Positions 15,068 through 31,879 of a stretch of 64,000 nt of DNA are shown piece by piece. The stretch is from positions 5,728,001 to 5,792,000 of the forward strand of contig OZ245365.1 of assembly GCA_965226495.1 (NCBI GenBank), read 5' to 3'. A model generated the notes under the pieces. It did no database searches and had not been told where the DNA came from. It saw only the letters and a program-made list of their open reading frames with translations. Within the stretch, counting starts at the first letter, position 1. Each line of letters opens with the position of its first letter. Made by a program: the position numbers and the translations under genes. Source of the stretch: Candidatus Marinacidobacterales bacterium (GTDB lineage: Bacteria; Acidobacteriota; Vicinamibacteria; Marinacidobacterales; DATDRI01).

Positions 15068-15196
15068 ATGGCTCAGAAAAGAGAATTGATCCATGTCCCT
15101 TGGTGGGGGTGGCTGGTGCTCCTGTTCGTGGTCGGTGGCTGCCTGACCTACTTCATTGTCGGTTTGATTGGCTGGGGAATTCCACTTCCCAGTTAA
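15068..15196 (+). CDS. Small single-pass membrane protein (42 aa)
   Basis: GAGGAGG RBS; MAQKRELIHVPWWGWLVLLFVVGGCLTYFIVGLIGWGIPLPS. Confidence 0.6.
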   Translation: MAQKRELIHVPWWGWLVLLFVVGGCLTYFIVGLIGWGIPLPS

Positions 15197-15787
15197 GCCT
15201 CATCTCTCCCCCACCCACGCGCCCGCTCGACTAGGCCCGGTATCGCCGCCCTTCGGGACTCTTGTAGGGATTGTTTGGTTGTTCGTTCGTCCTAAGGACG
15301 GCTCCATCGGAAGAGACGCATCCAAATCATCTTTGTCATAGTAGAGGTCCATGAATCCTTTCGGCTGGTGGTCTCCTCTAATCAGTCTCTTGATGTAACC
15401 GACACGAAAAACAAGAAGAAGCGGCTGATAGGTAACCACGTCTTTAGCTGGCAAGAGGCTGAACCAATTCATCAGAACCTTTCCCTAGAACGACGATTTG
15501 AAAAGTTCAGCGGCAGACCCCTATAATCCGCCGAACGAGCCACGTGGGTATATCTACATATCCAGACCCCCCCAGACGCGGCATACCCCGGGCGGGAAAC
15601 ACTGAATCATGTCCAGTATGAGTAGGCTCAGTTACATGAACAAGGACACCCACGCCGCGTTATCCAATACACAGGCCGGCTTGGTTGTGCTATCGAATGA
15701 CCCAGATCTAGATACTTACTGTTAGGTCGTCTTGTGGAACGCCGTAACCGGTCGAGTGCTTTGCACACGTAAAAAGGAGGGTTTCTG

Positions 15788-17203
15788 ATGACAGACCTGA
15801 AAATTGTTGACGCTCATGGCGATGAGCGGATCGTTCCGAACGCGGAAGTCGAGCACTTCACTGGGAAGTTTAACGGCGAAGTCCTTCGTCCTGCCGATCC
15901 GGGGTACGACGATGCCCGAACAGTCTGGAACGGCATGATCGATAAGTACCCCGGCCTTATTGCCCGCTGCACTGGCACAGACGATGTCGTGGCCTGCGTG
16001 AACTTCGCAAGAGACAACGAGCTATTAGTGTCTGTGCGAGGGGGAGGACACAACTACGCAGGCAAGGCCGTTTGCGACGGCGGTCTCATGATTGACCTGT
16101 CTCCAATGAAGGACACTCAGGTGGATAGCGAGAAACGGACGGTGCGAGCACAGGCCGGGTTGAGACTCGGAGAGCTCGATCGCGAAACGCAGAAGTTCGG
16201 CCTGGCGACAACACTTGGGATCAATACCGACACCGGAATCGCAGGCCTGACTCTCGGCGGCGGCGGTGGCTGGTTGTCTGGCAAGTTTGGGCTGGCATGC
16301 GACAACGTGCTCTCGGCCGAGGTGGTGACCGCAGGCGGGCAAACCCTCACCGCGAGCCCCGAGCAGAACGAAGATCTCTTCTGGGGGCTCCGTGGTGCCG
16401 GGGCCAATCTCGGCGTGGTCACATCTTTTGAGTATCAGCTGCATCCTGTGGGGCCGGTGTTGGGCGGGATGGTGATTCATCCTCTGAGCAAGGCCAAGGA
16501 AGTTCTGCCCTTCTTCCACGAGTTTTCGAGCACGGCGCCTGATGAGGTAGGGACCGTGGGGCTGTTGATGACGACGCCCGACGGGAGTCCCGCTGTGGGG
16601 ATGGTGGCGTGCTACTCCGGGCCCCCCGACGAAGGCGAAAAAGTGTTGAAGCCGCTCAGGACGTTTTCTTCCCCAATAGCCGATATGATCGCGGAGCAGT
16701 CCTACGTGGAGATGCAGAGCATGTTTGATGAGATTTGGCCGCCGGGTCGTCTCTATTATCACAAAGCGAGCAACCTGCGCGAACTGAGCGACTCCGCGAT
16801 TGAAACCCTCGTGGCCTGCGCCCAGCACTTCCCGACCGCTGTCTCGTCCATCTACCTCATGCAGTACATGCATGGTGCTGCCATCCGGGTGGGTGAAAGC
16901 GAAACGGCGTTTCCGCATCGCTATTATCACTACATTTGCGGCGTCCAATCCGGGACGGACGACCCAGATGATTCCGAGAAGATCATCCGCTGGACACGAG
17001 AGTCCTGGGACGCGATACAGCCGTTTTTCGAAGCGGGTGTGAGCCTCAACGCCGTGGAGGACACTGTGGAGGAGGGCGAACACCGGGTGCGTGAAGCCTA
17101 CGGCGTGAACTACGATCGACTCGTAGCCCTCAAGAGTAAGTACGACCCGACGAATATGTTTCGACTGAATGTAAACATCATCCCGAGCGGCGTTGAAGCT
17201 TAA
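15788..17203 (+). CDS. FAD-linked oxidoreductase (berberine-bridge-enzyme / 6-hydroxy-D-nicotine oxidase family)
   Basis: RGGGHN, GLTLGGG, DLFWGLRG.GANLGVVT, LKSKYDPTNMF; strong AAGGAGG RBS. Confidence 0.92.
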   Translation: MTDLKIVDAHGDERIVPNAEVEHFTGKFNGEVLRPADPGYDDARTVWNGMIDKYPGLIARCTGTDDVVACVNFARDNELLVSVRGGGHNYAGKAVCDGGLMIDLSPMKDTQVDSEKRTVRAQAGLRLGELDRETQKFGLATTLGINTDTGIAGLTLGGGGGWLSGKFGLACDNVLSAEVVTAGGQTLTASPEQNEDLFWGLRGAGANLGVVTSFEYQLHPVGPVLGGMVIHPLSKAKEVLPFFHEFSSTAPDEVGTVGLLMTTPDGSPAVGMVACYSGPPDEGEKVLKPLRTFSSPIADMIAEQSYVEMQSMFDEIWPPGRLYYHKASNLRELSDSAIETLVACAQHFPTAVSSIYLMQYMHGAAIRVGESETAFPHRYYHYICGVQSGTDDPDDSEKIIRWTRESWDAIQPFFEAGVSLNAVEDTVEEGEHRVREAYGVNYDRLVALKSKYDPTNMFRLNVNIIPSGVEA

Positions 17204-17301
17204 AAAAGCCGCTGCCCAATTGAAGAACGGGATGTCGCTGATTTTGTGGAATTACAACAGGAACTGGGCCGCATGTGAACGTGCCTCTGTTGGAGGGACC
17301 G

Positions 17302-17432
17302 GCCTAACTTGTGGATCGAGCGGACGTGGCCTTACTCTTCGGTAGGAATTGAGCTTGGAAGAAGCTGCGGAGTCTTCGGGATGGATCGTGCTTTGTTGAC
17401 CATTGGCCACGCCGCTCATCCACCTATTAGAT
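17302..17432 (+). mobile_element. Integron attC site 1
   Basis: GCCTAAC...gtggatcgagcggacgtggcc / ggccacgccgctcatccac...ATTAGAT imperfect palindrome; R' box has G to A change. Confidence 0.75.
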
Positions 17433-17457
17433 TGACTTGATGCTTACCTAGAGCGGG

Positions 17458-18327
17458 ATGATTTGGCTTGGCGAGAAGCGAGGCTATCTTACCGACTGGT
17501 CTACGCAGCTCTGGGTGCGTGCGACGGGGAAGAAGCTGGATGTTCGAGAATATCCATGGCTCGAGGGTCCGGTTGGTCCCGCCCGGGGCATAGGTGCCGA
17601 CTTTTTTCGGGAACTAGCCCGCAGAGAGAAGCTGGATGTCCGCACGGGAGGCCCACCGCTTGGGATCATTCCGGACTTTGGTGTCCTCCGGAGCGAATCG
17701 TTTGATCCTAGTGAGGTTAGTGGGGGAGTCATCGCCTTCTACGAGCAAACCTCAGCGTTCGAGCTCGAGGCATGGTCGCAGTGGTGCGGGGCGTTTCGTC
17801 CCTTTGGAGGTCTGTTAAGGACTTTGTTCAGTCGCCGACTCCAGCAGCTCAATGTGCCGTTGTCAGGCCTTGAAACAAGTCGAGGAGTTACAAACGAGGT
17901 TTCGCATCTGGTGGAGCCCGCGTCAGGCCTGCGCAAGTATGCCGTGTGGATACGACATATGGTCGGCAGCAAGGACGTTCTCTACGCAGGCAGTTACACT
18001 CCGTGCCGGGTCCCCGGGTTCGACCGCGTTTGTTTGAAAGTCGTGTTCCCGCTACCCAATGGAAAGGCGCTTGTCATCATGCGTCCGGAAGCGCATCCAG
18101 ACGGATCGCTGTCCCTGGTTTCGCGCGGCGATTCATTCGGTTCTCCGGGCTTCTACTTCGTGGTTCATGGAAAGGATAACTCGATATGGGCACGATACGT
18201 CCGGACTATGCGCGAAAGTATTCGCGTCTACGAGTGCGACGGTAGGGAGGCTCGGGCGGACCATACTCTCAGGATATGGGGATTGGTCTTTCTACGCCTC
18301 CACTATCGTTTGCGGTGGCGGAACTAG
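17458..18327 (+). CDS. Gene-cassette hypothetical protein (289 aa)
   Basis: Single ORF filling the space between attC1 and attC2. Confidence 0.75.
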   Translation: MIWLGEKRGYLTDWSTQLWVRATGKKLDVREYPWLEGPVGPARGIGADFFRELARREKLDVRTGGPPLGIIPDFGVLRSESFDPSEVSGGVIAFYEQTSAFELEAWSQWCGAFRPFGGLLRTLFSRRLQQLNVPLSGLETSRGVTNEVSHLVEPASGLRKYAVWIRHMVGSKDVLYAGSYTPCRVPGFDRVCLKVVFPLPNGKALVIMRPEAHPDGSLSLVSRGDSFGSPGFYFVVHGKDNSIWARYVRTMRESIRVYECDGREARADHTLRIWGLVFLRLHYRLRWRN

Positions 18328-18345
18328 CCTTAGTATGAGGGCGCA

Positions 18346-18420
18346 ATCTAACGTCTCGCTGGAGCAGACGGCGCCTGCTGTAATGCGCGGTGGCGCCGCA
18401 GCTCAGCGAGTCTGTTAGAC
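18346..18420 (+). mobile_element. Integron attC site 2
   Basis: ATCTAAC...ctcgctggagc..ggcgcc / ggcgcc..gctcagcgag...GTTAGAC. Confidence 0.85.
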
Positions 18421-18428
18421 GGAGGGAG

Positions 18429-18671
18429 ATGCAGTTGTTGAAATGCCCATCCTGTGCTGTGGAATTGGGGCGTGGGTTTATTTACGTTAGGGGTTTTGCA
18501 GGATCGCTCTTCTGGTCTGAGAGTGGGGATACAAGGTTTTACTCTCGGAAGGGTTTGGAGCAAATTGATCTGAGCAAGATTAGCGAACTACCTACAGGGG
18601 GCCAGGCAGTTGTTCCGGCGTTGCGGTGCTCGGCCTGTGGCATGGTGACCTTCAAGTCGGGGTTGGTTTGA
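18429..18671 (+). CDS. Cassette-encoded small zinc-ribbon protein (DUF6487/PF20097-like)
   Basis: GGAGG RBS right after attC2; KCPSC...GFI...LFW...ALRCSACG. Confidence 0.7.
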   Translation: MQLLKCPSCAVELGRGFIYVRGFAGSLFWSESGDTRFYSRKGLEQIDLSKISELPTGGQAVVPALRCSACGMVTFKSGLV

Positions 18672-18697
18672 GCTCGGAAGATTATGTGCACCCCGTG

Positions 18698-19575
18698 TGA
18701 CTTCAAGTTTGAAGCGCACCATTCGTTAGAGCCATGGAAACGTTCCTCCGGTGTGCGGTAGCCGAGCCTCTTGCGGGGCCGTGTGTTGAGCTTCTTTGCG
18801 ATACGATCGCAGTGGCGTTGCGTGAGCGCTGCTTGGCTGGTGCGCTTCGGCAGGTATTGTCGTAGCAGGCCATTGAAGTTCTCGTTGCTGCCTCTCTCCC
18901 ATGAGTGATAGGGAGTTGCGAAGTAGAACTTGACGCCGGTCGTTTCCTCGACGGATTCGTAGTCGTGGAACTCGGTGCCATTGTCCGCGGTGATCGTCTT
19001 GACCTGCTCCGGCACCCGCCGGAGCAACATCTTCGTTCGCTGGCTAGTGCCGAACATGCTGCGGTCGGACAGCTTGCCGATCAGCGCATAGCCCGTCTTT
19101 CGTTCCACGAGCGTGGTGACGCAGTCCGGCGCGCCTTTTCCTACCACGGTGTCGATCTCCCAGTGGCCAACGGCACGGCGCTTCTCGACACAAGACGGCC
19201 GCTCGGAGATGTGACGCTTCCCGGCCAGGTGGCCTCGGCTGTCGTAGCTGTTGTGGCGCTTGCGTCTAAGTTTGGGCGAGCATCGAAGGTGGCGGTATAG
19301 ATGTCCTCCGGCCTCCTTGTCCCGCCAAACGTGGGTGTAGATCGTCTCGTGGCTGATCGAGAGCTCGCCGTGAAGGCGCAGGTGGCCGGAGATCTGCTCT
19401 GGGCTCCAGTCGGCCTTAAGCTTCTTCTCCACCAGGGCAAAGTCGGCCTTTGTGAAGTACTGGTTCCGGCGAGACCGCGAGCGTCGTCCGTTCGTTCTCT
19501 CGATGGCCTTGCTCGGCCGGTAGCATCCATCACTACGTGAGCTGTTCCTCCTGACCTCTCTCGAGATGGTGCTCG
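18698..19575 (-). mobile_element. IS30-family element, 5'-truncated transposase
   Basis: STISRE.RRN, WSPEQI, SHETIY, GHWEIDTV, TITADNGTEF, WERGSNENFNGLLRQYLPK; IS30-like terminus near 18698-18722; N-terminus and left end missing. Confidence 0.88.
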
Positions 19576-20111
19576 CGGCCGCGGCCCTGGGTGGCTGTGG
19601 TGCGGAGGAGTCCACCCAAGGGGTGTCTGTATTGCAGGCGCCAGCAGCAGCGTACAGATTGCCCGCGCCGCCAGGTCAATCCACTTGGCCCGAGGCCCTT
19701 GGCGGAGACTGGCGAGTGATTGAGTGGCTGCCGAACCGAATCGGAACGTGGTCTTTCGAAGAGGGCAACGCACTCGTCGGACAGGTTGCAAAGCTCCACA
19801 CGAGCGAGCTTGAAGTTCCGGGATATTCGTGTGAGCGCCCGAACTTTGCGGTTTCCGACACCGGCAGGTTCTGGGAAAGGTTCGCGCAGTGCATGGGCCC
19901 GGAGCCACGCGGGGATTGTCGGGACATTGGGTGGGTTGGCAAGGCGATGCTCAAGTGCGCCGATTCGGATTCTGACCCGACGGTATTGGCCGAAGTCAGC
20001 GCTAGGTGTCCCGACGGTCTCCCCTTTACGTTTTCGCAGCTGTCGGGCTCAAGAGCCTTTCTAGGATTGCCGGATGGTCGGGGTTCCCTCTGCCTGAAGC
20101 TGATGAAATAG
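19566..20111 (+). CDS. Cys-rich putative lipoprotein cassette gene, 5' end probably clipped by the IS30 junction
   Basis: LAAAALGGC lipobox-like segment, several Cys, stop codon 14 bp before attC3. Confidence 0.55.
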   Translation: MVLAAAALGGCGAEESTQGVSVLQAPAAAYRLPAPPGQSTWPEALGGDWRVIEWLPNRIGTWSFEEGNALVGQVAKLHTSELEVPGYSCERPNFAVSDTGRFWERFAQCMGPEPRGDCRDIGWVGKAMLKCADSDSDPTVLAEVSARCPDGLPFTFSQLSGSRAFLGLPDGRGSLCLKLMK

Positions 20112-20124
20112 TGGCGTGGCAGCC

Positions 20125-20247
20125 GCAGAACACGCCGTTGCAGCGGGCGATCGGCGAAGGAGGGTTGCACCGTGGCAGCGCGAAGCGCTGTCCCTTCGCG
20201 CTCCCGCGTCATTGAGCGGGGCTCGCCGCTTGTCCGCAGTGTTATAC
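20125..20247 (+). mobile_element. Integron attC site 3
   Basis: GCAGAAC...gcagcgggcga / tcgccgcttg...GTTATAC. Confidence 0.7.
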
Positions 20248-20307
20248 GGCGCTGATGTCTTCGACGTTAATGTTGGTTTTGTGGCATCACTTCTGAGTGT
20301 AAACGCA

Positions 20308-20706
20308 ATGAATCAACTCTTTCGGTTCTCCAGTTCGGTTAAACGGGATCCTGCCGTCGATGCCTGGATGGCGGAACATTCGGGTGACTTGGGGGCAATT
20401 GCGCATCACTGGTTTGAGGCCATGCGCAAGTGTGGAGACGATGTCCGAGAACTTTTGCATGACGGCATGCCGACCGCATGTGTAACTGACGCGGCATTCG
20501 CATACGTCAACGCATTCACCGCGCACGTCAATGTCGGGTTTTTTCGCGGCGCCGAGCTTGCGGATCCGGCGGGCCTGTTGGAAGGCACTGGCAAGTATAT
20601 GCGGCATGTTAAGGTCAGGCCGGATGGTGACATCGACGCTAAGGCCCTCATGGGACTTATCGATACTGCATACACGGACATGAAGGACCGCCTTAAGGCG
20701 GAGTAG
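20308..20706 (+). CDS. DUF1801 (YdhG-like) domain protein, gene cassette
   Basis: HVNVGFFRGAELADPAGLLEGTGKYMRHVKV signature. Confidence 0.88.
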   Translation: MNQLFRFSSSVKRDPAVDAWMAEHSGDLGAIAHHWFEAMRKCGDDVRELLHDGMPTACVTDAAFAYVNAFTAHVNVGFFRGAELADPAGLLEGTGKYMRHVKVRPDGDIDAKALMGLIDTAYTDMKDRLKAE

Positions 20707-20757
20707 ATCGTGCCGGCTATCCGTAGATTTGGCCTTTTGGAGGGAATCGAGGCGCCC

Positions 20758-20862
20758 GTATAACAATGGCATGGAGCTGACAGTCCAAAATCGCACCGTC
20801 CTTGCAAAGAGAAGACCAGGGCCGGCGCCATTTTGCCCTCCAGCTCATACCCGACGTTATGC
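20758..20862 (+). mobile_element. Integron attC site 4
   Basis: GTATAAC...atggagctg..caaaat / attttg..cagctcat...GTTATGC. Confidence 0.85.
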
Positions 20863-20901
20863 AGACAGGCGTGCGATCCTCTTGCGGCGCTCCCAGTCCG
20901 C

Positions 20902-21381
20902 TCACCGTGACTCTACCCCTTCGGTGTAAACGTAGCGCCGCGCGCGGCTCATGACCGCATGCCGCTCATAGCCGACGGGTTCGATCGTCCTGCCGTCTGT
21001 GCGGTAGGTCGAGATGTCACGCGTGGTATTGCCTCCTGTGGATAGCGTGAGTTCCCACGTCCCGCCATCGATCCGCGTTGCTCGAAGCGACTGACTGTAG
21101 TCACCCTCGCTTGCGGCGGCGACGGTCTCGACAAGGGAGTCGATCGCGGACTCCGGGGGAAGGAAGATCACTCCAGGATCCGCGGCGGCGATGTCCTCCG
21201 CCTGCCGGAGTCGCATGATCTCAGCCGAGGGTATCCCGCTCTCGGGGTCGGGAACTAGAGCCACGACCTCGAAAACATGATTGTATGCTTCCAATCGAGA
21301 AACACGTTCCGGGGGGCCGCCGTAGGCCAAGCAACCAGCAAGGAACCCGGCTGCGATGAATCCAGCAGGCCGAAAGGACAT
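20902..21381 (-). CDS. Hypothetical lipoprotein in a reverse-oriented cassette
   Basis: MSFRPAGFIAAGFLAGC lipobox; lies between attC4 and attC5 on the opposite strand. Confidence 0.6.
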   Translation of the reverse strand: MSFRPAGFIAAGFLAGCLAYGGPPERVSRLEAYNHVFEVVALVPDPESGIPSAEIMRLRQAEDIAAADPGVIFLPPESAIDSLVETVAAASEGDYSQSLRATRIDGGTWELTLSTGGNTTRDISTYRTDGRTIEPVGYERHAVMSRARRYVYTEGVESR

Positions 21382-21516
21382 GGCGGGGAAAGTCTACCAG
21401 ACTTCATGGACGAAGAGCCGGTTCGCATCACGCTGACGAGAGCCTCGGAAAAATGAGCGGGGTTTCAGAGACGATCGCCGGAGCAGGAAAGCTATCGAGC
21501 GTAGGCGCGAATAGCT

Positions 21517-21588
21517 GCATGACAAGACGCTGAACCTGACGGCCGGCACGCGTTGTTGGCCAGCCGCAGGTTAGCGACAACGTTAGAC
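21517..21588 (+). mobile_element. Integron attC site 5
   Basis: GCATGAC...cgctgaacctg..ggcc / ggcc..caggttagcg...GTTAGAC. Confidence 0.8.
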
Positions 21589-21631
21589 AGTTCTGAATGG
21601 GAGCCAACCGAATGGGTTGCGCTGCGCGTAC

Positions 21632-21689
21632 TTGAAGGAGTTGGCTCCCCGGGTAGGACTCGAACCTACAGCCATCGGATTAACAGTCC
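21632..21689 (-). repeat. att site: duplicated 3' part of tRNA-Asn (outer copy)
   Basis: ttgaaggagttggctccccgggtaggactcgaacctacagccatcggattaacagtcc is identical to 30393-30450. Confidence 0.95.
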
Positions 21690-24206
21690 CAATCAGGACC
21701 AAACTGACAGCACCCAAGAAGACCTAACCGACACCAAGAACGACGACTTAGACGAGAAGTAGGCGTTCGTGGATCGTCTTGGTTTGGGTTGTTCTGGTAG
21801 CAGCGTGGTAGCAGAACTTACGGCCGAGGAAAACCGGAATGAAACGACTAGGTTGCGCTCAAAGGGAGCGTTGAGTCAAAAGCCCATTTCCGGCCGCGAA
21901 GGCGAACAAACACTGACAAGGGAACCCAATAAGATCAGGCCTCCTCCCGCCAGCAGTTGCCTCAAGTTGTCAGGTTCTGTACGATATTCAAGGACAAAAC
22001 GCGCACAAAATCCTTTCACAGTTGTAAGGCTCGTAATCCTTCCGGGATGACTGGCTGATTCGATTGCCTCCGAGAAAGAGGACCCAGCTTCGTGAGCAAG
22101 GTGGTCGGCATCGACCTGGGCACGACAAACTCGTGCATTGCGGTGTTGGAGGGAGGCACGGCACAGGTCATCCCCAATCAGGAGGGTGCGCGGACGACTC
22201 CTTCCATCGTGGCCTTTACCAACAAGGGCGAGCGGCTAGTGGGACAGATCGCTAAGCGGCAAGCCCTGACCAATCCCCAAAACACCGTCTACGGCATCAA
22301 GAGGCTGATCGGACGGCGATTCGACTCTCCAGAAATCGAGGGCGTCAAGAACGTTCTCCCCTACGAGATGGTCCAGTCCGCCAACGGAGACGCCCACATC
22401 AAGATCGACGATAAGGTCTATAGCCCCCCTGAGCTCTTGGCCATCGTCCTTCAAAAGCTCAAAGCGGCGGCGGAAGACTATCTCGGTGAGCCGGTGGAAG
22501 ATGCCATCATCACTGCTCCGGCGTATTTCAATGAAGCTCAGCGACAAGCTATCAAAGATGCCGGGGCGATCGCGGGACTGAAGGTGCTGCGTATCCTGAA
22601 TGCGCCTACAACCGCCGCGCTGGCCTACGGGCCCCAACATACGCAAGCCGCTACGGTCGCGGTTTACGACCTCGGTGGAGGCACTTTCGACATCTCGATC
22701 CTAGAGCTCACGGACGGGCTTTACCAGGTACTCTCCACCGGTGGCGACACCTATCTCGGGGGCGAGGACATCGATCAGCTCATCATCAATTGGCTTGTCG
22801 ATGAGTTCAAGAAGGAGACCGAGATCGATCTCACCGGGGATCGCATGGCGCTCCAGAGGCTAAAGGAAGCCGCAGAGAAGGCCAAGTGCGAGCTCTCGAC
22901 GTCTGCTCAGTCGGAGATCGTTCTTCCCTTTATCTCCGTAAACCAGTCCGGCCCTAAACATCTCAACACCGTCCTCACGAAAGGAAAGTTCGAGGAGATG
23001 ATCGATCCGCTGCTCGAACGGACTGTCGAGCCGTGCATGAAAGCCTTGAAGGACGCCGGCCTTACGAAAGACGAGATCGACGACGTCGTTATGGTGGGCG
23101 GCCAGACCCGTACGCCCAAGGTCCTCGAGACCGTACGGAAGGTCTTTGGCCGCGAGCCCAACCGAAGTGTGAACCCCGACGAAGTCGTGTCGATGGGGGC
23201 CGCGATCCAGACCGGCATCACATCGGGAGAGGTCACCGACCTCGTTCTGCTCGACATCACGCCGCACACGTTCGGTATCGAAACCAAGGATGGGACGTTT
23301 ACACCGCTCATCGATCGTCAGGCTACCGTTCCCACCAAGAAGAGCCGCATCTTCACGACAGACGCTGACAACCAGACCACGTTCGAGGTTCACGTACTAC
23401 AGGGAGAGAACGAGCAGGCCGCCTACAACACGTCTTTGGGTCGATTCTCATTGGCGCACATTGCTCCCGCCCCAAAGGGTAATCCCAAAATCGAGGTAAG
23501 CTTCGAAATCGACATAAACGGGATTCTATACGTCACCGCCCTCGACCTGGCGACGGGCCACGAGGAGAACTTTGTTCCCCGCGCCACGGGCGGACTCACA
23601 ATGTCTGAGGTCGATCGCCTTCGTGATGAGTTCCGATCCAGGGCCGAAGAGTGGCAAAAAGAAACAGAGCGACAACGAGGAAAAGAACAGCTCCTAGTAC
23701 TGATCGCCAACACGAAGAAGAAATTGTCCGCGGTTTCGGGCAAGCTCACCGAAGACGAGCGTGCTCGCGCACAGGAGGCCCTCGAAGCCGCCGAACAGGC
23801 CACGAGTGGAGACAACCGGGAGGTTAGTGCCGATCCGTCCCGTCTCCAGGCGCTCGCCGAGCGGCTCTCGCAGGTTTCGAATGCTGTTGTGGCGAGAGTC
23901 ATTGAGGAGGCAAAAGCGCACGGTTGGCAGATACAGGTCACCTGCCCTGCCTGCGATACGCAGTTGAAGGTCTCTCCAAAGGCCACGGACCCCGGCAAGC
24001 GCATTAGATGCCCTAGCTGCCGCAACGTCTTTGACTTCTAGCGCCTTGACATCTCCCTGGATGAATACCGAGTTCGCATAGCCACTTCTTTACTGATTGC
24101 TCTTCTTGGCTGACAGCCACAAAAGCCGTCACAAATAGTAGTAGCGAAAAAGTGGTAGCAAAGGCCGGAAACGGGAGGACCCGAAGCCCGCAAGAGTTTG
24201 AAGGAG
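21690..24206. mobile_element. Island A: 2.5-kb integrase-less element integrated at tRNA-Asn
   Basis: Flanked by tRNA-Asn 3' repeats; TGGTAGCA arm-like repeats at 21795/21806 and 24153. Confidence 0.8.
22092..24041 (+). CDS. dnaK: Divergent Hsp70/DnaK paralog with C-terminal zinc ribbon (MJ0042-like)
   Basis: GIDLGTTNS, YDLGGGTFDIS, LGGED, VGGQTR, NPDE, linker DLVLLD; tail CPAC-x17-CPSC. Confidence 0.9.
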   Translation: MSKVVGIDLGTTNSCIAVLEGGTAQVIPNQEGARTTPSIVAFTNKGERLVGQIAKRQALTNPQNTVYGIKRLIGRRFDSPEIEGVKNVLPYEMVQSANGDAHIKIDDKVYSPPELLAIVLQKLKAAAEDYLGEPVEDAIITAPAYFNEAQRQAIKDAGAIAGLKVLRILNAPTTAALAYGPQHTQAATVAVYDLGGGTFDISILELTDGLYQVLSTGGDTYLGGEDIDQLIINWLVDEFKKETEIDLTGDRMALQRLKEAAEKAKCELSTSAQSEIVLPFISVNQSGPKHLNTVLTKGKFEEMIDPLLERTVEPCMKALKDAGLTKDEIDDVVMVGGQTRTPKVLETVRKVFGREPNRSVNPDEVVSMGAAIQTGITSGEVTDLVLLDITPHTFGIETKDGTFTPLIDRQATVPTKKSRIFTTDADNQTTFEVHVLQGENEQAAYNTSLGRFSLAHIAPAPKGNPKIEVSFEIDINGILYVTALDLATGHEENFVPRATGGLTMSEVDRLRDEFRSRAEEWQKETERQRGKEQLLVLIANTKKKLSAVSGKLTEDERARAQEALEAAEQATSGDNREVSADPSRLQALAERLSQVSNAVVARVIEEAKAHGWQIQVTCPACDTQLKVSPKATDPGKRIRCPSCRNVFDF

Positions 24207-24253
24207 TGGCTCCCCGGGTAGGACTCGAACCTACAGCCATCGGATTAACAGTC
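24196..24253 (-). repeat. att site: duplicated 3' part of tRNA-Asn (middle copy)
   Basis: tggctccccgggtaggactcgaacctacagccatcggattaacagtc matches the tRNA-Asn 3' 47 nt. Confidence 0.95.
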
Positions 24254-24720
24254 GTGCTCAGCTGAACACCAACGAGCACCAACCGAGTCCAACTGGCACG
24301 AAAGGCTCGAAGAAGCGATGACGGTCGTCTCCGTTGTTTCGGCTAGCCCAGAGCACTTTTGGCACCAACGCGGCACCAAAAGGCGCGGTCAACCAGCCGT
24401 GTTGGTCCTACGTTTCTCGTATCTCGTCGAGACCAAGACTTTGTGCGCGGTCAGACGAAATCTCAGCACTGTGTACCCTTCTCCCAAGGGTGATGCCGAT
24501 CCTTCCTCCATTCGACACGACGAGGAAACGACGCGACGCGCACACCGCGCTGCAAGTTTCATGACGGAAGCATCGTGGGCCGCGTCCGCCGACAGGCGCT
24601 CTTAGCTAGAAATGAAACGCGACGCCGAAAACGGGTCCTTGGTAGGTGACGTCCAAGCCGAACTTCTTGCTCGCGCCACACTGCGGGGTGCGCTCTCCAT
24701 CGATCCAACTCCTTCGTGCC

Positions 24721-24757
24721 AATGAAAATGGCTGCCCGCGGTTGGCCGCGGGCAGCC
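24721..24757 (-). terminator. Probable intrinsic terminator of the sulfatase gene
   Basis: ggctgcccgcgg-ttgg-ccgcgggcagcc perfect hairpin followed by attttcatt on the minus strand. Confidence 0.6.
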
Positions 24758-24827
24758 GATCAACAAACGCTCTTACGAATGCGATTCGTCGATCAACAGA
24801 GTGTCTCGCAGAGCAAGTCCGAAGTAG

Positions 24828-26546
24828 CTACTTTTTGATGCCCCAATCGGCCTCGAATTTCTCGTATTCCCGAGAGCGTTTTAGCACTTCGTCGACATCG
24901 AAAGGAACGTCGCCTTTATTGAAACGAGATTTTGACGCCTTGATGGTTTCGGGCCGCGCGTTGGCAATGCCGGTCAGGGGAAACCCTTTTGCCTCATCAA
25001 CGTTGGGATACTTTTCCATCCAGATCTCATGACGCGCTTTCATAGTGTTAAACATCCCCTTGGTGGGAAACATGGGGAGCATCATGCCTTGCACTTCCCG
25101 CGGGTCGTTGTAGAGGTCGTAGAAAGATGCACCACTGAGTCCCGGGAGCTCGCCCACCCAATGCCGCTTGAATCGGCCTTTGACCGACGCCGCGTAGATT
25201 TCCCCAGTGTAAATATGAACATAATCGCGTCGACTATGGCTGTCACCGTTCAAAAACAGAGACGTTTGGTCTATCCCATCAATAATGCGATCGGTAGGAA
25301 TATGCCTGGTCGCTCCACCGAGACGGGCGAAGGTGGTAAACAAGTCGGTAATGTGAATGATATCCCCAACGGTCTGACCTGGTTCGATCATCCCTGGCCA
25401 CATTGCCATGGCGGCGACCCGGACACCGCCTTCAAGATAGTCACCTTTTCCACCACGATAAAGCGTTTCAACCATTCCCGGCGGGCCGTTATGGGTCATC
25501 GGGCCGTTGTCCGCCATAAAAATGACCAGGGTATTCTCGGCGATGCCTAGCTCTTTCAGCCGTTTCATTAGATTACCCACAAAGGGATCGAACCTCGCAA
25601 GCCCCTCCTGCAGGAATCCACGCGATAGAGTATTTATATCCGGGTGTGGTCCAAAGGCAATAAGGCTGGGCCACAAGGAAACATAGAACGGTTTGTTCGC
25701 GGCGGCGTTCTTCTCAATAAAGGCCATGGTCCGCACTTCTTCCTGTTCCAGCGCCGCGTACCAGTTCTTGAGGTCTGTTGATGGAAGAAACTCTCTGACT
25801 TCTCCACCCTTTATTCCCTCGAGGTGCCACACGGCACCCTTAGGGCGCCAACCTTTATCCAAATCGTAAGGATCGGCCGGGAAAATCTCGGGGTGTAAGC
25901 TAGTTGGTGCTAATGCACCGGCGGCTTCGAGTTGCGGCAGGTACATACTTGGCACCTGGTTATACGGGGTCCACAATGCCTCATCAAAACCCTGCTTGGT
26001 GGCATAACTTTCTTCAACATCACCCAGGTGCCATTTACCGAAGAACCCGGTCGCATAACCGGCCTCACTAAGCACCTCACCCATGGTGACTTCATCTTTC
26101 GCCAGTCCCCCGTATTCGTACGGGAAGCCAACGTTGAACATGCCGTTTCGGCTCGGCATACGCCCCGTCATGGCGGCGGATCGACTTTGGGTACACGCTA
26201 TCTCGGTGTACATCCGCATAAAGATGATGCCTTCACTCGCCAACTGGTTCAGATTAGGGGTTGAAAAACCGCGAATCTTTTGAATCGCAGGCACACCGAC
26301 TTCGCCAACTGCTGTGTCATCTACCATCAAGTGGACGATATTCGGCGGCGTTCCGTGCTTCTCTCGGAGCGCGGCGAGCCTCGCGTCTAGCTCTTCATCC
26401 TCGGCTGCCCACTTGTCGCCGTGCTGGGCCTTTAGGACATAAAACTCGGCGTCGTGTACGATTTCCATATTCTCGGGCTGAGCCCAAGCGAAGCTGCTCG
26501 TCACAAGCAGCAAACAGACTGTCATTCCCGTAACACTTTTCATCAT
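24828..26546 (-). CDS. Exported arylsulfatase (formylglycine-dependent family)
   Basis: PNIVHLMVDD, CTQSRSAAMTGR, GKWHLG, NTLVIFMADNG, GGKG...EGGVRV, YDLYNDPRE; RBS GAAGGAG before MMKSV. Confidence 0.9.
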   Translation of the reverse strand: MMKSVTGMTVCLLLVTSSFAWAQPENMEIVHDAEFYVLKAQHGDKWAAEDEELDARLAALREKHGTPPNIVHLMVDDTAVGEVGVPAIQKIRGFSTPNLNQLASEGIIFMRMYTEIACTQSRSAAMTGRMPSRNGMFNVGFPYEYGGLAKDEVTMGEVLSEAGYATGFFGKWHLGDVEESYATKQGFDEALWTPYNQVPSMYLPQLEAAGALAPTSLHPEIFPADPYDLDKGWRPKGAVWHLEGIKGGEVREFLPSTDLKNWYAALEQEEVRTMAFIEKNAAANKPFYVSLWPSLIAFGPHPDINTLSRGFLQEGLARFDPFVGNLMKRLKELGIAENTLVIFMADNGPMTHNGPPGMVETLYRGGKGDYLEGGVRVAAMAMWPGMIEPGQTVGDIIHITDLFTTFARLGGATRHIPTDRIIDGIDQTSLFLNGDSHSRRDYVHIYTGEIYAASVKGRFKRHWVGELPGLSGASFYDLYNDPREVQGMMLPMFPTKGMFNTMKARHEIWMEKYPNVDEAKGFPLTGIANARPETIKASKSRFNKGDVPFDVDEVLKRSREYEKFEADWGIKK

Positions 26547-27252
26547 CGTGGTACTCCTTCGGTAAAAAGAGGAAGTGGTTGTGTATTGGTTCAGCGTGAA
26601 GATGACAGCGAGGTTGGAGGTTAACGCAACGCCGGGCGGCAGGAAGTCCCCTCTCACCCCAGGGATCGTATCATGGTTCTCGGGCGCTCTCTGGTGCTCA
26701 TTGCTTGTGGGCGAGAGGGAACGGAGTGGGCTTCCTGGGATCAGAGTGTTCATGCTGCTCATACGCTGCTCTCACGCGGCGCCTCCCGAGCCTGCTCGAG
26801 TTTCCGGTCGCGCTCCGACCAGATCTCTGTGGCCTTGCCATCCATCAAGTCCGGCGGCGCTAGGTAGCCGAATCGCGCTGTGCAGGCGAACCCCTAGAAT
26901 TTCAAAGGCGTGAACGCGCTTTCCAACCTACGGATTACGCATAGGATCGCGGCCACGTGAGCGCGACACCTCGGGTCCGATATTTCGTGGCAGCGCGAGT
27001 GTGGTAGACAGGGGTTACGCTCATCTCCGCGCCTCTGATCGACACAGACACTCCTCAACCGCCTTGCCCTGTTTGCTTGAGTTCTGCTACCCTCACCAGG
27101 ACTCACTCGGACTGCACAGCCCTATCCTGGTGGGGGAAATTCGAGCGGACCGGGGCCGGACACGTATGAAATTTCCTATCCTTCTCCAGTACCAAGGGCA
27201 ATACTTGGGATAGGGGAAAGCAAATTCCTTCCTGTATCCTGGGGGACATCCA

Positions 27253-27768
27253 ATGAGGCAATTATCGAGTTTTGGGGTTGTGATCTTTCTAGTCAGTATG
27301 TCTTTGCAAGGCTGTGCGCCGGAGCCGGGGCGTGCCGTCGAAGAAGCTCCCACCACCGAGGCAGACGTGGAGGCGGTCAAGAGGGTGCGAGAGCAAGCCG
27401 TGGCCGCGATCAACGCAGGCGACGCGGACGCTGTCGCTGCTCTGGCTACCGACGACATAGTGTGGATGCCGCAGGACAAACCGACCAGCATTGGCAAAGA
27501 GGCGTTTCGATTGTACTGGGTCGCGCTCTTCGAGCAGTTCGTCTTCGACAGAACCCTCTCCCACGATGAGGTCATCGTGGCTGGCGACTGGGCGATTCAT
27601 CGGAGCACACTGGAAGGCACGCTGACCCCAAAATCCGGGGGTGAGTCGAGGTCCCATAGCGCGAAGGCCATCGACATTCTAAGACGCCAGCCGGACGGCT
27701 CTTGGAAGCACGCACGCATCATCTTCAACAGCAATAGCCCGGATGTTGCCGCTCATCCAAACTTGTAA
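27253..27768 (+). CDS. NTF2-like/SnoaL (DUF4440/YybH) lipoprotein
   Basis: LQGC lipobox; INAGDADAVAAL..DD, AGDWA, LRRQPDGSWK. Confidence 0.85.
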   Translation: MRQLSSFGVVIFLVSMSLQGCAPEPGRAVEEAPTTEADVEAVKRVREQAVAAINAGDADAVAALATDDIVWMPQDKPTSIGKEAFRLYWVALFEQFVFDRTLSHDEVIVAGDWAIHRSTLEGTLTPKSGGESRSHSAKAIDILRRQPDGSWKHARIIFNSNSPDVAAHPNL

Positions 27769-27799
27769 TTCAATATTGGGTTCTGGCCATCCACGCCCC

Positions 27800-27897
27800 A
27801 CTCATCGCGAGCGCGATCCCAAAATCGGTCACCATCGCCTCGCCCTCGTGCAACAGGATGTTCTCCGGCTTGATGTCCCGGTGGATCACATCGTGCC
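27800..27897 (-). pseudogene. Ser/Thr kinase catalytic-loop fragment
   Basis: Translates to HDVIHRDIKPENILLHEGEAMVTDFGIALAMS. Confidence 0.75.
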
Positions 27898-28147
27898 GCA
27901 GGACAGGCTCATCCCTGCCCCGATCATCCATTCGGCCCGCGCTACGCTGACCCCGAGCCTCAACTAACGGTGAACACCCTTATCACGACCGTAAATTCCC
28001 TCGTCCCGACACTGAGGCTCCGGCACCGTAGAAGACGGCGTTCTGCGGTCGTTATCGGGACCGTGGATCGATCCCAGTTGCGCCAATCCGATGGCAACCA
28101 CGGGGCCTTTCCTTGATTCCTCCATCACGTGGACCGACCTAGCAGGG

Positions 28148-28387
28148 TCAGGTTCGATCTAGCGCGGCAGGATGAGCGCGTTTTGGTCGAACACCGAACG
28201 CGCCGATGTAAATGACATTCCCGTCGCGCACGACGGCAGCGGTCAGTCCCGGTATCCCGCTCGTCCGCACCTGCTCCACCAGGTAACTGTCGATGCGCGC
28301 GCGAAGATCCTGTGCGCTCGCGCCCGCTGCCGCGCCTACGATCGACAGAACAACCAGGTAGTTCAATCGAACATTGGCACCCACCAT
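28148..28387 (-). pseudogene. Serine hydrolase (beta-lactamase family) N-terminal fragment
   Basis: Signal peptide + IDSYL...GIPGLTAAVVRDG.VIY..AFGV, truncated before SxxK. Confidence 0.7.
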
Positions 28388-28575
28388 GGCTCGCCCTCCC
28401 GACAGCATGGTCCGTCTAACGGCTTCCGCATAACCGGCCCAAAGCACACGGGCCTACTTCCCAAAATCTAGCGATAGCGGACACGTGGAGCAACAGTTTT
28501 TTAAGCTAGCACTGGCGCGCTTTGGGTCCGCGTTGATGCGCTGGTTATGCGCCACACTTCGAGCTGTATTAAGTT

Positions 28576-28880
28576 CTAATAACCGCTCGTTTGATCGGGC
28601 AGAATCACGTTGTTGCGCTCAACATAGTCTTCCCAAAGTACGATCATTTCAGCGAGCTTCTCCGGATGAGACGCAGATAAATCGTGTATCTCGGCCGGAT
28701 CGTCAGAGAGGTTATACAACGGCCATTTATCTGGCATCACCACGGGTACCACCCCATCACGAATCTCATGCTGCGGTAGATATATAATTGTCCAGTCGCC
28801 CTGGCGGATTGCACGCTTGCCGAACAATTCCCAACCCATGTAGTCGCCAGGCTGTCTAATCGTGTCACTTGCCCCGGTCA
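28576..28880 (-). pseudogene. Arylsulfatase C-terminal fragment
   Basis: GWELFGKRAIRQGDW...LYNLSDDPAEIHDLSASHPEKL..M...WEDY. Confidence 0.75.
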
Positions 28881-28972
28881 GCAACGGCACCGTACCAAGG
28901 AGCTTCGGAGCTTCAGGATCGGCAAACACATTCGAGTTCAGCGCACCGCGCTCGATGACTACCTTCGCAAGG

Positions 28973-29001
28973 TTGACAGGTCACTATACGGAGAGTATAG
29001 T
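28973..29001 (+). promoter_or_regulatory. Sigma70-type promoter with overlapping palindromic operator
   Basis: TTGACA-17 bp-TATAGT; inverted repeat ACTATAC-ggaga-GTATAGT at 28983-29001. Confidence 0.75.
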
Positions 29002-29008
29002 CCGCCTC

Positions 29009-29209
29009 GTGCAAGGAAAAGAGCTGCGCGCCGTCCGACAAAAACTCGGCCTGACTCAAGAAGGATTCGCCGAACGCCTGGGCGTCACAGCGAACAGCGT
29101 GGCGCGGTGGGAGCGGGGCGAAATGCCGATCAACCGGCTCGTCGATAACTTCGCCCGGCTACTGAAGCGGACTGACGCGCCGACGCTGAGAGCAAAAAGG
29201 AAAAAGTAA
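29009..29209 (+). CDS. XRE-family HTH regulator (probably leaderless)
   Basis: ELRAVRQKLGLTQEGFAERLGVTANSVARWERGE; GTG 7 nt after the -10 box. Confidence 0.85.
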   Translation: MQGKELRAVRQKLGLTQEGFAERLGVTANSVARWERGEMPINRLVDNFARLLKRTDAPTLRAKRKK

Positions 29210-29215
29210 GGATCC

Positions 29216-30330
29216 ATGTCGAAAGTCTACAAGAGAAAGGACCGGGATAAGTGGATCGCGGACTTCCGCGATCACCGTGGCAAGCGTAAGCGCCAGACGG
29301 CGAAGACCCGAGGCGAAGCCGAGGATCTTCTGGCCGCTGGAATCAAAGCCGCGAAAGAGAAATCCGGCGACGCCCGCCTCGATGAGAAGAAAAACCTGGA
29401 GGAGTATGCTGCGGAGTAGCTGGAAGGCGTCAAAGCTGAGGGCGAGCTGGCACCTAGAACGCTCTATGACTACGAGAGCCACTTAACCAAGCACGTGCTA
29501 CCCGAGCTTGGGCACCTGAAGCTCAAAGACATCCCCCCCTCGGGCCGTGAAGGCTTTCCTTCGAGAGAAGAAGGCGGCGGGCTACGCCAAGAACACGGTG
29601 CGGCTCATGCGGGCAGCTCTATCGGTCGTGCTCTCCGATGCAGTTGAAGACGGTTTCATAAACACCAACCCGGCCCTCGCAACCAAAGGTGGCAGGCGGA
29701 AGCGGCCCGGCGCAATGTCAAAGGCCGAGAGACTGCAAAAGATCCGGCCCATGACGTGGGAGCAGCTTGAGAAGTTCCTCGACGCGGCCCACGGCTTCGA
29801 TCCCTTCTATGGAGTGCTCTTCGAGGTCATGGCGAAGACTGGCTTGCGACCTGGCGAGGCCCTAGCGCTCCAAGTAGACGATCTTGATCTTCCAGCTCGC
29901 AAGGCGCGGATACAGCGTGCGGTGAGCATGGGCCATGTGAAGGACACCAAGACCTCGGAGGCGAGAGACGTTGACCTGAGCACCGACCTGGTGGAGTTGC
30001 TTCGGGGCTACGTGGCTCAGCTTCAGGGAGAAGCGCTACGGAATAGCTGGGAGTTGACTTGGCTCTTTCCGAGCGCAACGAACACCCCTAGAGACCACTC
30101 CCACGTCTCGAAAGCATACCGCCGAATCCTTCGGCGTGCGGCGATCCCCAACTTTCGGCTCTACGATTTGAGGCACACCGCCGCGTCGTTGCTGCTGGCT
30201 CGGTGCGCCCCCATCACCTACGTGGCCGCGCAGCTCGGACATGCCAAGCCCACAACCACACTCACCTACTACGCCCACCACATTCCGACCGAAGGAGTGT
30301 CTTTCGCCGACTTCTCGACTCGGTACCGGA
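29216..30330 (+). pseudogene. Phage/island-type tyrosine integrase with internal TAG (29417) and frameshift in a C7 run (about 29534-29540)
   Basis: Arm-binding N-terminus, TGLRPGE, KDTK, YDLRH, LGH, YYAH; homology continues in frame past the TAG (LEGV...HVLPELGHLKLKDI); 3' end approximate. Confidence 0.85.
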
Positions 30331-30402
30331 AAAAGTTGGCACCAAAGTTGGCACCAAAACGGGTACTGAGGGGGATGAGTTACCGGAAGTGTTTGAAGGA
30401 GT

Positions 30403-30477
30403 TGGCTCCCCGGGTAGGACTCGAACCTACAGCCATCGGATTAACAGTCCGCCGCTCCACCATTGAGCTACCGGGGA
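30403..30477 (-). tRNA. tRNA-Asn(GTT)
   Basis: TCCCCGGTAGCTCAATGG...GGACTGTTAATCC...GGTTCGAGTCC...GGGAGCCA. Confidence 0.97.
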
Positions 30478-30531
30478 ATAGGGTCAGCGGGAAAAGAAGT
30501 ATAACACGACGCCTCAGGCGGGTCAGGACCG

Positions 30532-31128
30532 CTAAGTTCCTGATTTAGTCAGGTCCTGCAGCACCAGCTTGGCCACCGCTTTCAACGTATCGAAAACACC
30601 CACCCCGTTTTGGGATTTGGCGATGGCCTCCAAGACGGGCTCGGTCCTGACGGAGAGCGCTTGCTTCATCTCTTCGACCGGAACCGCGCTCGGCAGATCG
30701 CGTTTGTTGAGTTGGAGGACGTAGGGAATGATCTGAAGATCGTAACCTTGCGATTTGAGATTCCCGTCTAGATTCTGAAGGCTTTCGATATTGGCATCCA
30801 TACGCTCACGCTGTGAGTCCGCGACGAAGATGACACCGTCTACGCCCTTGAGGATGAGCTTCCGCGAGGCGTCGTAGAATACCTGTCCCGGAACGGTGTA
30901 CAAATGAAAGCGCGTCTTAAAGCCGCGGACGTTGCCGAGCTCGAGTGGGAGAAAATCGAAGAACAAAGTCCGGTCCGTCTCGGTGGCGAGAGAGATGAGC
31001 TTGCCTTTGGCACTGGGATTGGTCTTATCGTAGATGAACTGCAGGTTGGTGGTCTTCCCGCATAGCCCCGGCCCGTAGTAGACGATCTTGCAGTTGATCT
31101 CCCGCGAGGCGTAGTTGATGAAGGTCAT
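30532..31128 (-). CDS. mglA: MglA small Ras-like GTPase
   Basis: [48 protein letters not shown]. Confidence 0.97.
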
Positions 31129-31149
31129 CCGTTCGTTCCTAGCTTCAGA

Positions 31150-31638: not shown

Positions 31639-31879
31639 GACTTTGTTACCCTCCGTCCGGCTTAGGCACTCTTAATGGGGATGCCGTACAGGAAAGTCCC
31701 CGCGACGTTCCTCTAACCCGGCTCAGTACGGTGATGTCTTAAGTCAAGAAAAACGATGTATGGGCCAGGGAAGCTAGTGTCCAAAGGAGCTCATGGGAAA
31801 GGTCGACCGAGTCAGCGATTGCTCGCAAGCGTCGAGGAACAACTGGCATTTGGGGAGATGAATCTCTCGGCGATCTGTT

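Follow-up and report, generated by a model that had tools for sequence, protein, structure and literature searches.

An Hsp70 with altered conserved residues and a predicted C-terminal zinc ribbon on a probable element remnant at tRNA-Asn in an acidobacterium

We analyzed a 64,000-nucleotide (nt) stretch of DNA from a Candidatus Marinacidobacterales bacterium (GCA_965226495.1, contig OZ245365.1, positions 5,728,001 to 5,792,000), which is referred to here as the window. The subject is one gene in one strain of a soil acidobacterium. It lies at 22092-24041 of the window and encodes an Hsp70 with a predicted C-terminal zinc ribbon. The gene is located in a 2.5-kb unit between two copies of a tRNA-Asn segment, and we call its product the island Hsp70. 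The features of the gene and its unit are listed below, where CDS denotes the coding sequence, NBD the nucleotide-binding domain, SBD the substrate-binding domain, and att an attachment site.

22092..24041, plus strand: intact Hsp70 gene of 649 codons with C-terminal zinc ribbon (P0001; open reading frame, Pfam and PDB matches)
22075..22083, plus strand: Shine-Dalgarno-like GAAAGAGGA, 9 nt ahead of the GTG (read from the sequence)
22512..22631, plus strand: apparently old divergent patch in NBD subdomain IA, codons 141-180, with D148E, T154I, E171A, and A174T (identity, unique sites)
22633..23203, plus strand: putative gene-conversion tract, CDS nt 542-1112 (codons 181-371), common with the resident operon copy
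23292..23597, plus strand: divergent SBD beta-sandwich, codons 401-502 (identity, unique sites)
23598..23873, plus strand: helical lid, codons 503-594 (37% protein identity to the resident copy; synonymous sites saturated)
23934..24038, plus strand: predicted MJ0042-type zinc ribbon CPAC-x18-CPSC, residues 615-649 (profiles, AlphaFold2 model)
21632..21689, no strand: att-like copy 1, 58 nt identical to the tRNA-Asn 3' part plus 10 nt downstream (repeat search)
24197..24254, no strand: att-like copy 2, 57/58 nt with one indel (repeat search)
30403..30477, minus strand: tRNA-Asn (GTT), the integration target, holding the third segment copy (tRNA scan)
21702..21813: conserved element-end arm, matching the stretch next to a partial copy of tRNA-Thr (G000:C1:4197551-4197662) at 80.5% identity over 113 nt

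The island Hsp70 and its substitutions

The frame begins with a GTG codon 9 nt downstream of GAAAGAGGA and is open over all 649 codons, in agreement with the initial annotation. Pfam HSP70 (PF00012) matched residues 4-593 of 649 (profile positions 1-594 of 599, E 5e-222), and the full-length profile covers NBD, linker, SBD-beta, and lid. The closest solved structures were mortalin and DnaK (E 1e-189 or better). The score was 806.7 with PRK00290 (NF001413, the NCBIfam DnaK equivalog; cut-off 648) and 785.4 with TIGR02350 (prok_dnaK), which is under the cut-off of 822.55. An AlphaFold2 model built from 74 sequences reached a mean predicted local distance difference test score (pLDDT) of 88.5 and a predicted template modeling (TM) score of 0.80. 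It superposed on ATP-open DnaK (4B9Q, 5NRO) with a TM score of 0.88 versus 0.56 on ADP-state DnaK (2KHO); this conformation was given no weight as evidence, since Hsp70 models often come out in the open form.

We aligned the island Hsp70 with E. coli K-12 DnaK, whose residue numbers are used below, unlike the codon numbers, which are those of the gene itself. The two proteins share the three-part architecture and the ATP-binding residues, with 48.5% identity over 623 columns. The motif RILNAPTTAA corresponds to E171A and A174T, and TTDADNQTTFEVHV corresponds to A429D and V436F; together with M404K, all five previously listed substitutions are present in the alignment. Additional changes are D148E, T154I, L399F, and M469N. 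Furthermore, E. coli DnaK ends in an acidic disordered tail, whereas the island Hsp70 has the ribbon there, and its gene has no adjacent dnaJ. The nucleotide-binding residues D8, T11-N13, K70, D194, G196-T199, D201, E267, K270, and S274 are retained, as are P143, Y145, F146, R151, K155, R167, N170, P172, and T173, the linker residue D393, and I401 and F426. The alignment thus confirmed that the ATP-binding loops, K70, T199, and the linker are kept. E171 is lost from the N170-E171-P172-T173 loop (codon GCG for A171 versus GAG in three relatives of the genus). The hydrophobic pocket with V436 and an uncharged 404/429 arch is lost as well, being replaced by F436, F399, D429, and K404.

The substitutions were compared with 109 full-length family members, i.e., the 120 listed minus those shorter than 560 amino acids (aa). 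A171, T174, F399, D429, and F436 each occurred in none of the 109, in which E171 is conserved in 99%, V436 in 100%, and V429 in 100%. K404 is present in 109/109. Thus, A171, T174, D429, and F436 are as unusual as had been supposed, whereas K404 is a family-wide residue. Likewise, A429D holds with respect to E. coli, but the family residue is V and the actual change is V429D. At positions conserved in at least 95% of the members, the island Hsp70 stood alone with D148E, T154I, E171A, A174T, A288V, L399F, I418V, V429D, V436F, V469N, Q471K, V480I, Q491L, R495H, and Q497E, among others. V484L is also a change at a family-invariant position. Residues 148-174 hold four of the eight unique NBD changes of this kind, and the beta-sandwich (codons 401-502) holds I418V, V429D, V436F, V469N, Q471K, V480I, V484L, Q491L, R495H, and Q497E. 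L399F (codon 394, 23271-23273) lies just upstream of the latter region, and K404 is codon 399 (23286-23288). Most of the odd residues are one base change from the genus codon; V469N requires three and V484L two.

D148, E171, and the N170-T173 loop lie at the interface with the linker and SBD-beta, where D148 bonds the L484 backbone, according to one report (PMC12406271). Position 484 is V in the family and L in the island Hsp70, so that D148E is paired with V484L; from this one pair, we read the two changes as a possible co-adapted interface. The designation of E171A as a classic loss-of-function change was too strong. In that report, E171D and E171Q keep allostery, ATP-induced release, and stimulation by DnaJ and substrate (PMC12406271). 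Because these variants keep allostery, E171 seems to be important and not absolutely required. A literature search for A174T together with DnaK found nothing.

The tail reads C618-P-A-C621, 18 residues, C640-P-S-C643; the spacer is therefore 18 residues and not the 17 given in the initial annotation. This CxxC-x(~19)-CxxC pattern has a profile score above cut-off, as TIGR02098 scored 23.5 on the 53-aa tail alone (cut-off 20.9). Pfam Zn_ribbon_4/5 matched weakly over residues 615-648, and Zn_ribbon_4 (PF13717, cut-off 30.3) reached 31.0 when the genome was scanned and 26.1 when the complete protein was. In the AlphaFold2 model, the tail forms four short strands at 614-648 (pLDDT about 80) right behind the last lid helix. 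MJ0042-type ribbons usually sit at the protein N-terminus, unlike that of the island Hsp70, which is formed by the last 35 residues; several other ribbon copies in the phylum (e.g., L067 and L070) are near frame starts. The ribbon had been described as replacing a disordered tail, but the nearest relatives have no such tail and the ribbon is an addition. Recent capture from a resident gene was rejected as its origin, the best match in the same genome being 43% identical over 35 residues. Nine ribbon-match frames of 575-730 aa were inspected in the phylum genomes and none was an Hsp70; six further frames (570 aa and 1285-1818 aa) lay outside that inspection. A protein search with residues 570-649 found no counterpart among 113 candidates, and an ESM Atlas search with the tail gave no usable match.

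Hsp70 proteins with C-terminal ribbons were found elsewhere. P0147, which stood among 150 cluster representatives (50% identity), is an Hsp70 that ends in three ribbons, and a search with its tail identified 26 Hsp70 proteins with C-terminal ribbons, three of which are named Thermoplasmata or Thermoplasmatota archaeon. E171 is kept in all 21 of these archaeal ribbon DnaKs in which the motif was found; therefore, a ribbon tail appears compatible with a working Hsp70. As in the island Hsp70, the Hsp70 part is followed directly by one or more CxxC...CxxC ribbons, several of which match PF13717. In contrast, the archaeal proteins are 688-956 aa long (fragments apart), mostly have two or three ribbons split by charged linkers, keep E171 and, where seen, V436, and their ribbon sequences are not close to that of the island Hsp70. 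The architecture therefore appears to exist independently, without the island substitutions, and the two fusions look independent. Recurrence of such an Hsp70 was accordingly seen for the architecture, in archaea with E171 kept, and nowhere in the searches together with the island substitutions. No description of the archaeal lineage (P0147, P0272-P0296) was found in a literature search aimed at Hsp70 variants.

Sequencing error had also been considered as a source of the substitutions. At least 76% of the sampled words of the unit were present in 20 runs from 7 studies. Contigs in 4 runs from 4 studies covered 23168-24233, which holds F399, D429, F436, and the ribbon, with 0 differences; the codons of E171A and A174T (22602-22613) lie outside the listed long contigs. 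The runs may depend on the assembly's own source.

Resident copy, mosaic structure, and selection

The genome has five Hsp70 genes, namely, two canonical DnaKs, a 599-aa protein designated par3, a lidless 516-aa protein designated par5, and the island copy. Resident par3 (G000:C1:2176191-2177969) is located within a grpE-par3-dnaJ operon, of which no description was found in the literature. The genome supplies two GrpE and ten J-domain genes, including those of this operon. One full-length par3-type gene, 72-80% identical to the island Hsp70, is present in each of six genomes (G001-G006), and the unpublished G007 has only a partial one at a contig end. No second par3-type copy was found in these seven family genomes. 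G007 entered the analysis only as a single row of the tree, the partial fragment, and one of the genomes counted among the 40 relatives and the 7 genomes. The close relatives carry the database names Vicinamibacteria or Acidobacteria DnaK.

We constructed a maximum likelihood tree of 21 rows (quick search, LG+G4). The island Hsp70 was sister to par3 of its own genome (Shimodaira-Hasegawa-like approximate likelihood ratio test support of 86) inside the genus clade (99), with a branch of 0.27 versus 0.016 for par3. The island gene is a strain-specific third copy of the 599-aa type, which its acidobacterial order (Vicinamibacteria in the databases) maintains in a grpE-hsp70-dnaJ operon. par3 is the nearest relative of the island Hsp70 (81.8% protein identity over 599 columns), and the two have K404, H397, the lack of a disordered tail, and the lid fold in common. 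In contrast, par3 retains D148, T154, E171, A174, L399, V429, V436, V469, and Q471, none of which remains in the island Hsp70. par3 also has its own GrpE and DnaJ and an orthologue in each of G001-G006; the island Hsp70 is without these and has the ribbon in addition.

The similarity between the two proteins is unevenly distributed. At the protein level, the NBDs are 94.2% identical, the SBD-beta parts 80.3%, and the lids 37.0%, and synonymous divergence (dS) is 0.20 in the NBD, 1.0 in SBD-beta, and saturated in the lid. The three par3 orthologues of the genus differ from one another by a dS of 0.3-0.4 in the NBD and SBD-beta, with values of 0.34-0.64 for the lid. Sliding windows along the gene were used to locate the boundaries. 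DNA homology to par3 begins at the second base of the start codon, and there is none upstream. Over codons 41-120, identity to each of the three copies of the genus is about 92%. Over codons 141-180, nt identity to all par3 genes is 80-82%, and 55-62% at third positions, with 16 sites unique to the island gene in 120 nt. CDS nt 542-1112 differ from par3 of the same genome at only 8 of 571 nt (98.6% DNA identity), and the encoded lobe II (codons 181-371) is 97.9% identical at the protein level. Within nt 541-1080, the island gene follows its own par3 at 53 of the 59 sites where that copy and the same-genus genome G002 differ. From codon 400 to codon 600, identity to the par3 genes drops from about 82% to about 50%. 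We read this mosaic as a probable old divergent Hsp70 lineage, part of which was overwritten when the resident gene recently acted as a donor in gene conversion. All odd residues are within the apparently surviving old patches, codons 141-180 and 400-594, whose identity to all par3 genes is 47-82%. No donor of the divergent half was identified, since the best relative of residues 381-649 is 63% identical and no closer than the resident operon copy.

Selection was estimated as counting-based pN/pS, the ratio of nonsynonymous to synonymous changes per site, with changes polarized against the codon common to at least two of the three genus par3 genes. On the lineage of the island gene, pN/pS in the NBD was 0.14 (codons 1-140), 0.16 (141-180), and 0.15 (181-371). 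The value was 0.21 for codons 401-500 and 0.54 for the lid (501-594, where pS is saturated), and 0.31 overall. All ranges were under the neutral expectation (binomial p from 1e-3 to 3e-20, each at most 0.0011), except for codons 372-400, where the departure was not significant (27 codons, p 0.15). The values of 0.14-0.21 in the NBD and SBD-beta speak against long-term neutral decay, and the comparison favors a repurposed gene over a decaying one. Pairwise omega to par3 was 0.26, versus 0.08-0.16 among the orthologues; therefore, constraint is about two- to four-fold relaxed yet clearly present. Neutral decay had been expected to leave E171 and V436 in close homologues and dN/dS near 1 in this copy. 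The nearest homologue (82% identity) does keep both residues, but dN/dS is not near 1.

The lidless par5 (G000:C1:2570079-2571629, minus strand; L005/L043) lies outside the window and is a second strain-specific par3-type derivative. It has E171D, P172A, T199S, D393E, and A at 404, a branch of 0.32, and a pairwise omega to the resident copy of 0.23. The E171 loop is altered in both extra par3-type copies.

The repeat-bounded unit and readings of its gene

The 58-nt tRNA-Asn 3' segment occurs in three copies (21632-21689, 24197-24254, and 30393-30450) and nowhere else in the 6.34-Mb genome; a 27-mer of the segment had 3 matches versus 0 in 100 shuffles. Between the first two copies, the Hsp70 gene is the sole open reading frame (ORF) with a family match, and a 93-aa ORF upstream of it has no Pfam match. 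No dnaJ or grpE was found within the unit, the nearest J domain being at 53846-54022 of the window and the GrpE genes at 2.18 and 5.11 Mb. The repeats and the ORF scan agree with the previous description of a lone gene between tRNA-derived direct repeats. The arm at 21702-21813 is similar to the end of the tRNA-Thr unit described below; therefore, the Hsp70 unit appears to bear the authentic end of an element whose family is represented twice in the genome.

A cis-mobilizable element (CIME) is a decayed element, with its att sites preserved, that is arranged in tandem with an incoming one (PMC5704250). Flanking attL/attR copies are present here, and integration or transfer genes are absent inside. 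As in a CIME, the integrase-free Hsp70 unit lies between two tRNA-derived att copies in tandem with an integrase-bearing unit at the tRNA 3' end, and its distal arm has a homologue at the end of a further tRNA-integrated element of this genome. On the other hand, CIMEs were defined in Streptococcus families of integrative and conjugative elements, contigs of 4 runs showed no excision joint, and the neighboring integrase may be truncated at its N-terminus. With att copies kept and no integrase, the unit can thus be described as a decayed integrative element at tRNA-Asn and a candidate CIME. Similarity between the flanks of the two tRNA-Asn units was sought and set aside, as it consisted of 7-13-nt chance matches.

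We interpret the island Hsp70 as functional but non-canonical, specific to this strain, and encoded on a decayed integrative element, and hold this reading with even confidence. Most likely, coupling would be retuned, the pocket remodeled, and a targeting module added. The protein would still bind ATP because all nucleotide-contact residues are kept. ATP hydrolysis may be slow or coupling altered, as A171 drops the carboxylate that helps to hold K70 and the Mg-bound waters; E148, I154, and T174 would lie beside A171, and L484 may alter the partner side of the D148 contact. F436 and F399, in or near the central pocket, probably remodel the peptide cleft. K404 and D429 could make a charged arch, N469 and K471 may alter loop L5,6, and the client could be narrower or different. 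The predicted zinc ribbon may tether the protein to a partner or site. GrpE and DnaJ could be borrowed from the resident operon, whose lobe II the island Hsp70 nearly copies.

Several results weigh against this interpretation. The gene is a single occurrence in one genome, and selection is unreadable from orthologues. A search for an island orthologue with the C-terminal 149 residues found no full-length counterpart in 40 relatives, and the last 70 residues had no Hsp70 counterpart in 400 phylum genomes. With residues 381-649, the best match was 63% identical at a coverage of at most 81%, and a ribbon Pfam family was present in 0/120 of the matches listed. The promoter and terminator scan of 21400-24400 gave nothing above shuffles, i.e., no recognized promoter, and no RNA run with the island unit was among the 24 listed. 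The status of the unit as the remnant of a decayed element counts on the same side. In addition, an average over so long a branch would mask a recent functional loss, and the branch may be partly older than the odd residues. Finally, V436F DnaK was used as a substrate-binding-defective mutant (PMC11804706) and E171 was listed as catalytic (PMC4595643).

These points bear most directly on the possibility that the gene is a recently inactivated duplicate on its way to a pseudogene, stranded on a dead element without co-chaperones, with the frame open for want of time. We regard this as unlikely. In its favor are the presence in one genome only, a branch 17 times that of the resident copy, the single base change that suffices for most odd residues, the functional importance of E171 and V436 in DnaK (PMC11804706, PMC4595643), and a unit without integrase, dnaJ, or grpE. 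However, 649 codons are still open, all ATP-contact residues are kept, and the NBD and SBD-beta have pN/pS values of 0.14-0.21, also in the divergent patches with the odd residues. The high synonymous divergence makes these patches old and not fresh damage, and V469N and V484L took three and two base changes.

Alternatively, the product may be a pseudo-chaperone acting in trans, either an ATP-bound and poorly hydrolyzing sink that takes up DnaJ or GrpE of the resident operon system, with a dominant-negative or regulatory effect, or a decoy or sensor for a phage protein that hijacks Hsp70. Lobe II is 97.9% identical to that of the resident copy and R167 and N170 are kept, from which shared GrpE and J-domain surfaces are likely; moreover, the E171 and A174 changes fall in one loop, E171K and A174T were reportedly isolated as dominant-negative dnaK alleles, and the gene lies on a mobile-element remnant. 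Nevertheless, there is no specific sign of a decoy, of a sink for co-chaperones, or of a sensor of phage. A pure sink would need no remodeled yet conserved SBD under purifying selection, and the unit has no partner gene. PADLOC matched 0 families, and no defense genes were found nearby, the neighbors being metabolic or element genes (sulfatases, a SnoaL-like protein, and an integrase). HSP70-containing conflict systems require GTPase and tubulin neighbors (PMC7159879), and no such partners were found among the neighbors scanned. We consider this explanation distinctly improbable.

In a more specific proposal, which we hold to be similarly doubtful, the protein would be a 'locked' Hsp70 that binds ATP, barely hydrolyzes it, and has a closed pocket. 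Carried by a decayed mobile element, it would be maintained by selection to modulate the third Hsp70 system of the host in trans, competing for DnaJ and GrpE via the gene-converted lobe II, with the ribbon placing it at its target. If so, the co-chaperone surfaces common to both proteins would be renewed by gene conversion and the divergent allosteric patches preserved by selection, and the case would be a bacterial parallel to the repurposing of Hsp70 to Hsp110. Hsp110 and Grp170 are duplicated Hsp70s repurposed as exchange factors or holdases (PMC13580251). They may serve, as an analogy of mechanism only, as a precedent for an Hsp70 duplicate that retains ATP binding without the canonical hydrolysis-driven cycle; in contrast, they are eukaryotic, with long SBD insertions and a different lid.

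That the island Hsp70 is an ordinary, fully active DnaK-type chaperone, with the odd residues compensated by other changes of the lineage and the ribbon a neutral add-on, agrees with the PRK00290 score (806.7, cut-off 648) and the ribbon tails of archaeal DnaKs but is very unlikely given E171 in 99% and V436 in 100% of the 109 family members, the TIGR02350 score under cut-off (785.4 < 822.55), and the complete lack of a carboxylate at A171, unlike the E171D and E171Q variants that were tested (PMC12406271).

E171 and V436 are textbook handles for the laboratory dissection of the Hsp70 cycle, and both are naturally changed here, along with allosteric residues nearby, in a gene under purifying selection. 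If the non-canonical island Hsp70 is active, it would reveal the compensating changes that let an Hsp70 tolerate both the loss of its catalytic glutamate and an aromatic side chain in the central pocket; a protein that binds without cycling would instead be a bacterial example of Hsp70 repurposing. The mosaic may also clearly illustrate how gene conversion between paralogous chaperones ends at patches with lineage-specific functional residues.

Neighboring units and metagenome contigs

The Hsp70 unit adjoins a second repeat-bounded unit on its right and a strain-specific segment on its left, with the following features.

24255..30392, no strand: second repeat-bounded unit (ORFs, Pfam)
24828-26762, minus strand: sulfatase, second unit
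27253-27768: SnoaL-like protein, second unit
28576-28929, minus strand: 117-aa ORF of the second unit without Pfam match; by eye a sulfatase C-terminal fragment
28862-29209: helix-turn-helix (HTH) protein, second unit
29547-30548, plus strand: tyrosine integrase of the second unit, reading into tRNA-Asn (Pfam)
15400..21631, no strand: strain-specific segment adjoining the repeat-bounded units (comparison with G002, Pfam)
18539-19615, minus strand: IS30-like transposase (rve and HTH_32 matches; Pfam)

The integrase frame begins only 68 residues ahead of the catalytic domain and spans the whole tRNA-Asn gene, and the two small ORFs directly upstream of it have no Pfam match; the integrase may be N-terminally truncated. 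The segment at 15400-21631 encodes an FAD/BBE oxidase, the IS30-like transposase, a DUF1801 protein, and a 159-aa ORF without family match, and no att copy was found at its left end. In G002, tRNA-Asn is about 230 bp from the homologue of window position ~15395; therefore, the whole 15.4-30.4 kb stretch is missing there.

A second small tRNA-bounded unit lies outside the window at G000:C1:4197159-4200682, with tRNA-Thr (CGT) at 4200608-4200682. A 47-nt partial copy of this tRNA gene (about 4197491-4197537, 4.1975 Mb) is located about 3.07 kb from it. A C-terminal integrase fragment reads into the partial copy, and the unit also has kinase-like fragments and a transposase-like ORF.

No excision joint between the att copies was found in the contigs of 4 runs, and contigs cannot show rare circles. 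A weak joint from 15195 to 30398 in X2 (depth 2, side 30) was rejected as excision, as it fits a relative without the whole 15-kb insert. The contigs end inside the repeats, and the order of the units is thus without independent confirmation from them.

The transposase region 18539-19615 had a depth 10-50 times that of its flanks, with a single deep contig per run that carries a fixed set of differences; therefore, related transposase copies are abundant in those samples. At 26571-27121, the 5' end of the sulfatase gene and its upstream region, summed contig depth was 477-781 in four runs versus about 5-15 in the flanks, with 12-16 contigs at one site, which indicates some repeated or widely shared sequence. 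The J domain at 53846-54022 (minus strand) lies within a 697-aa frame at a distance of 30 kb from the Hsp70 gene, and the window has no other J-domain gene. Directly next to tRNA-Asn are mglA-like GTPase and roadblock/MglB-like genes (30532-31638, minus strand), named by reading their translations, and window positions 30393-31700 show 76-90% DNA identity in all five relatives searched.

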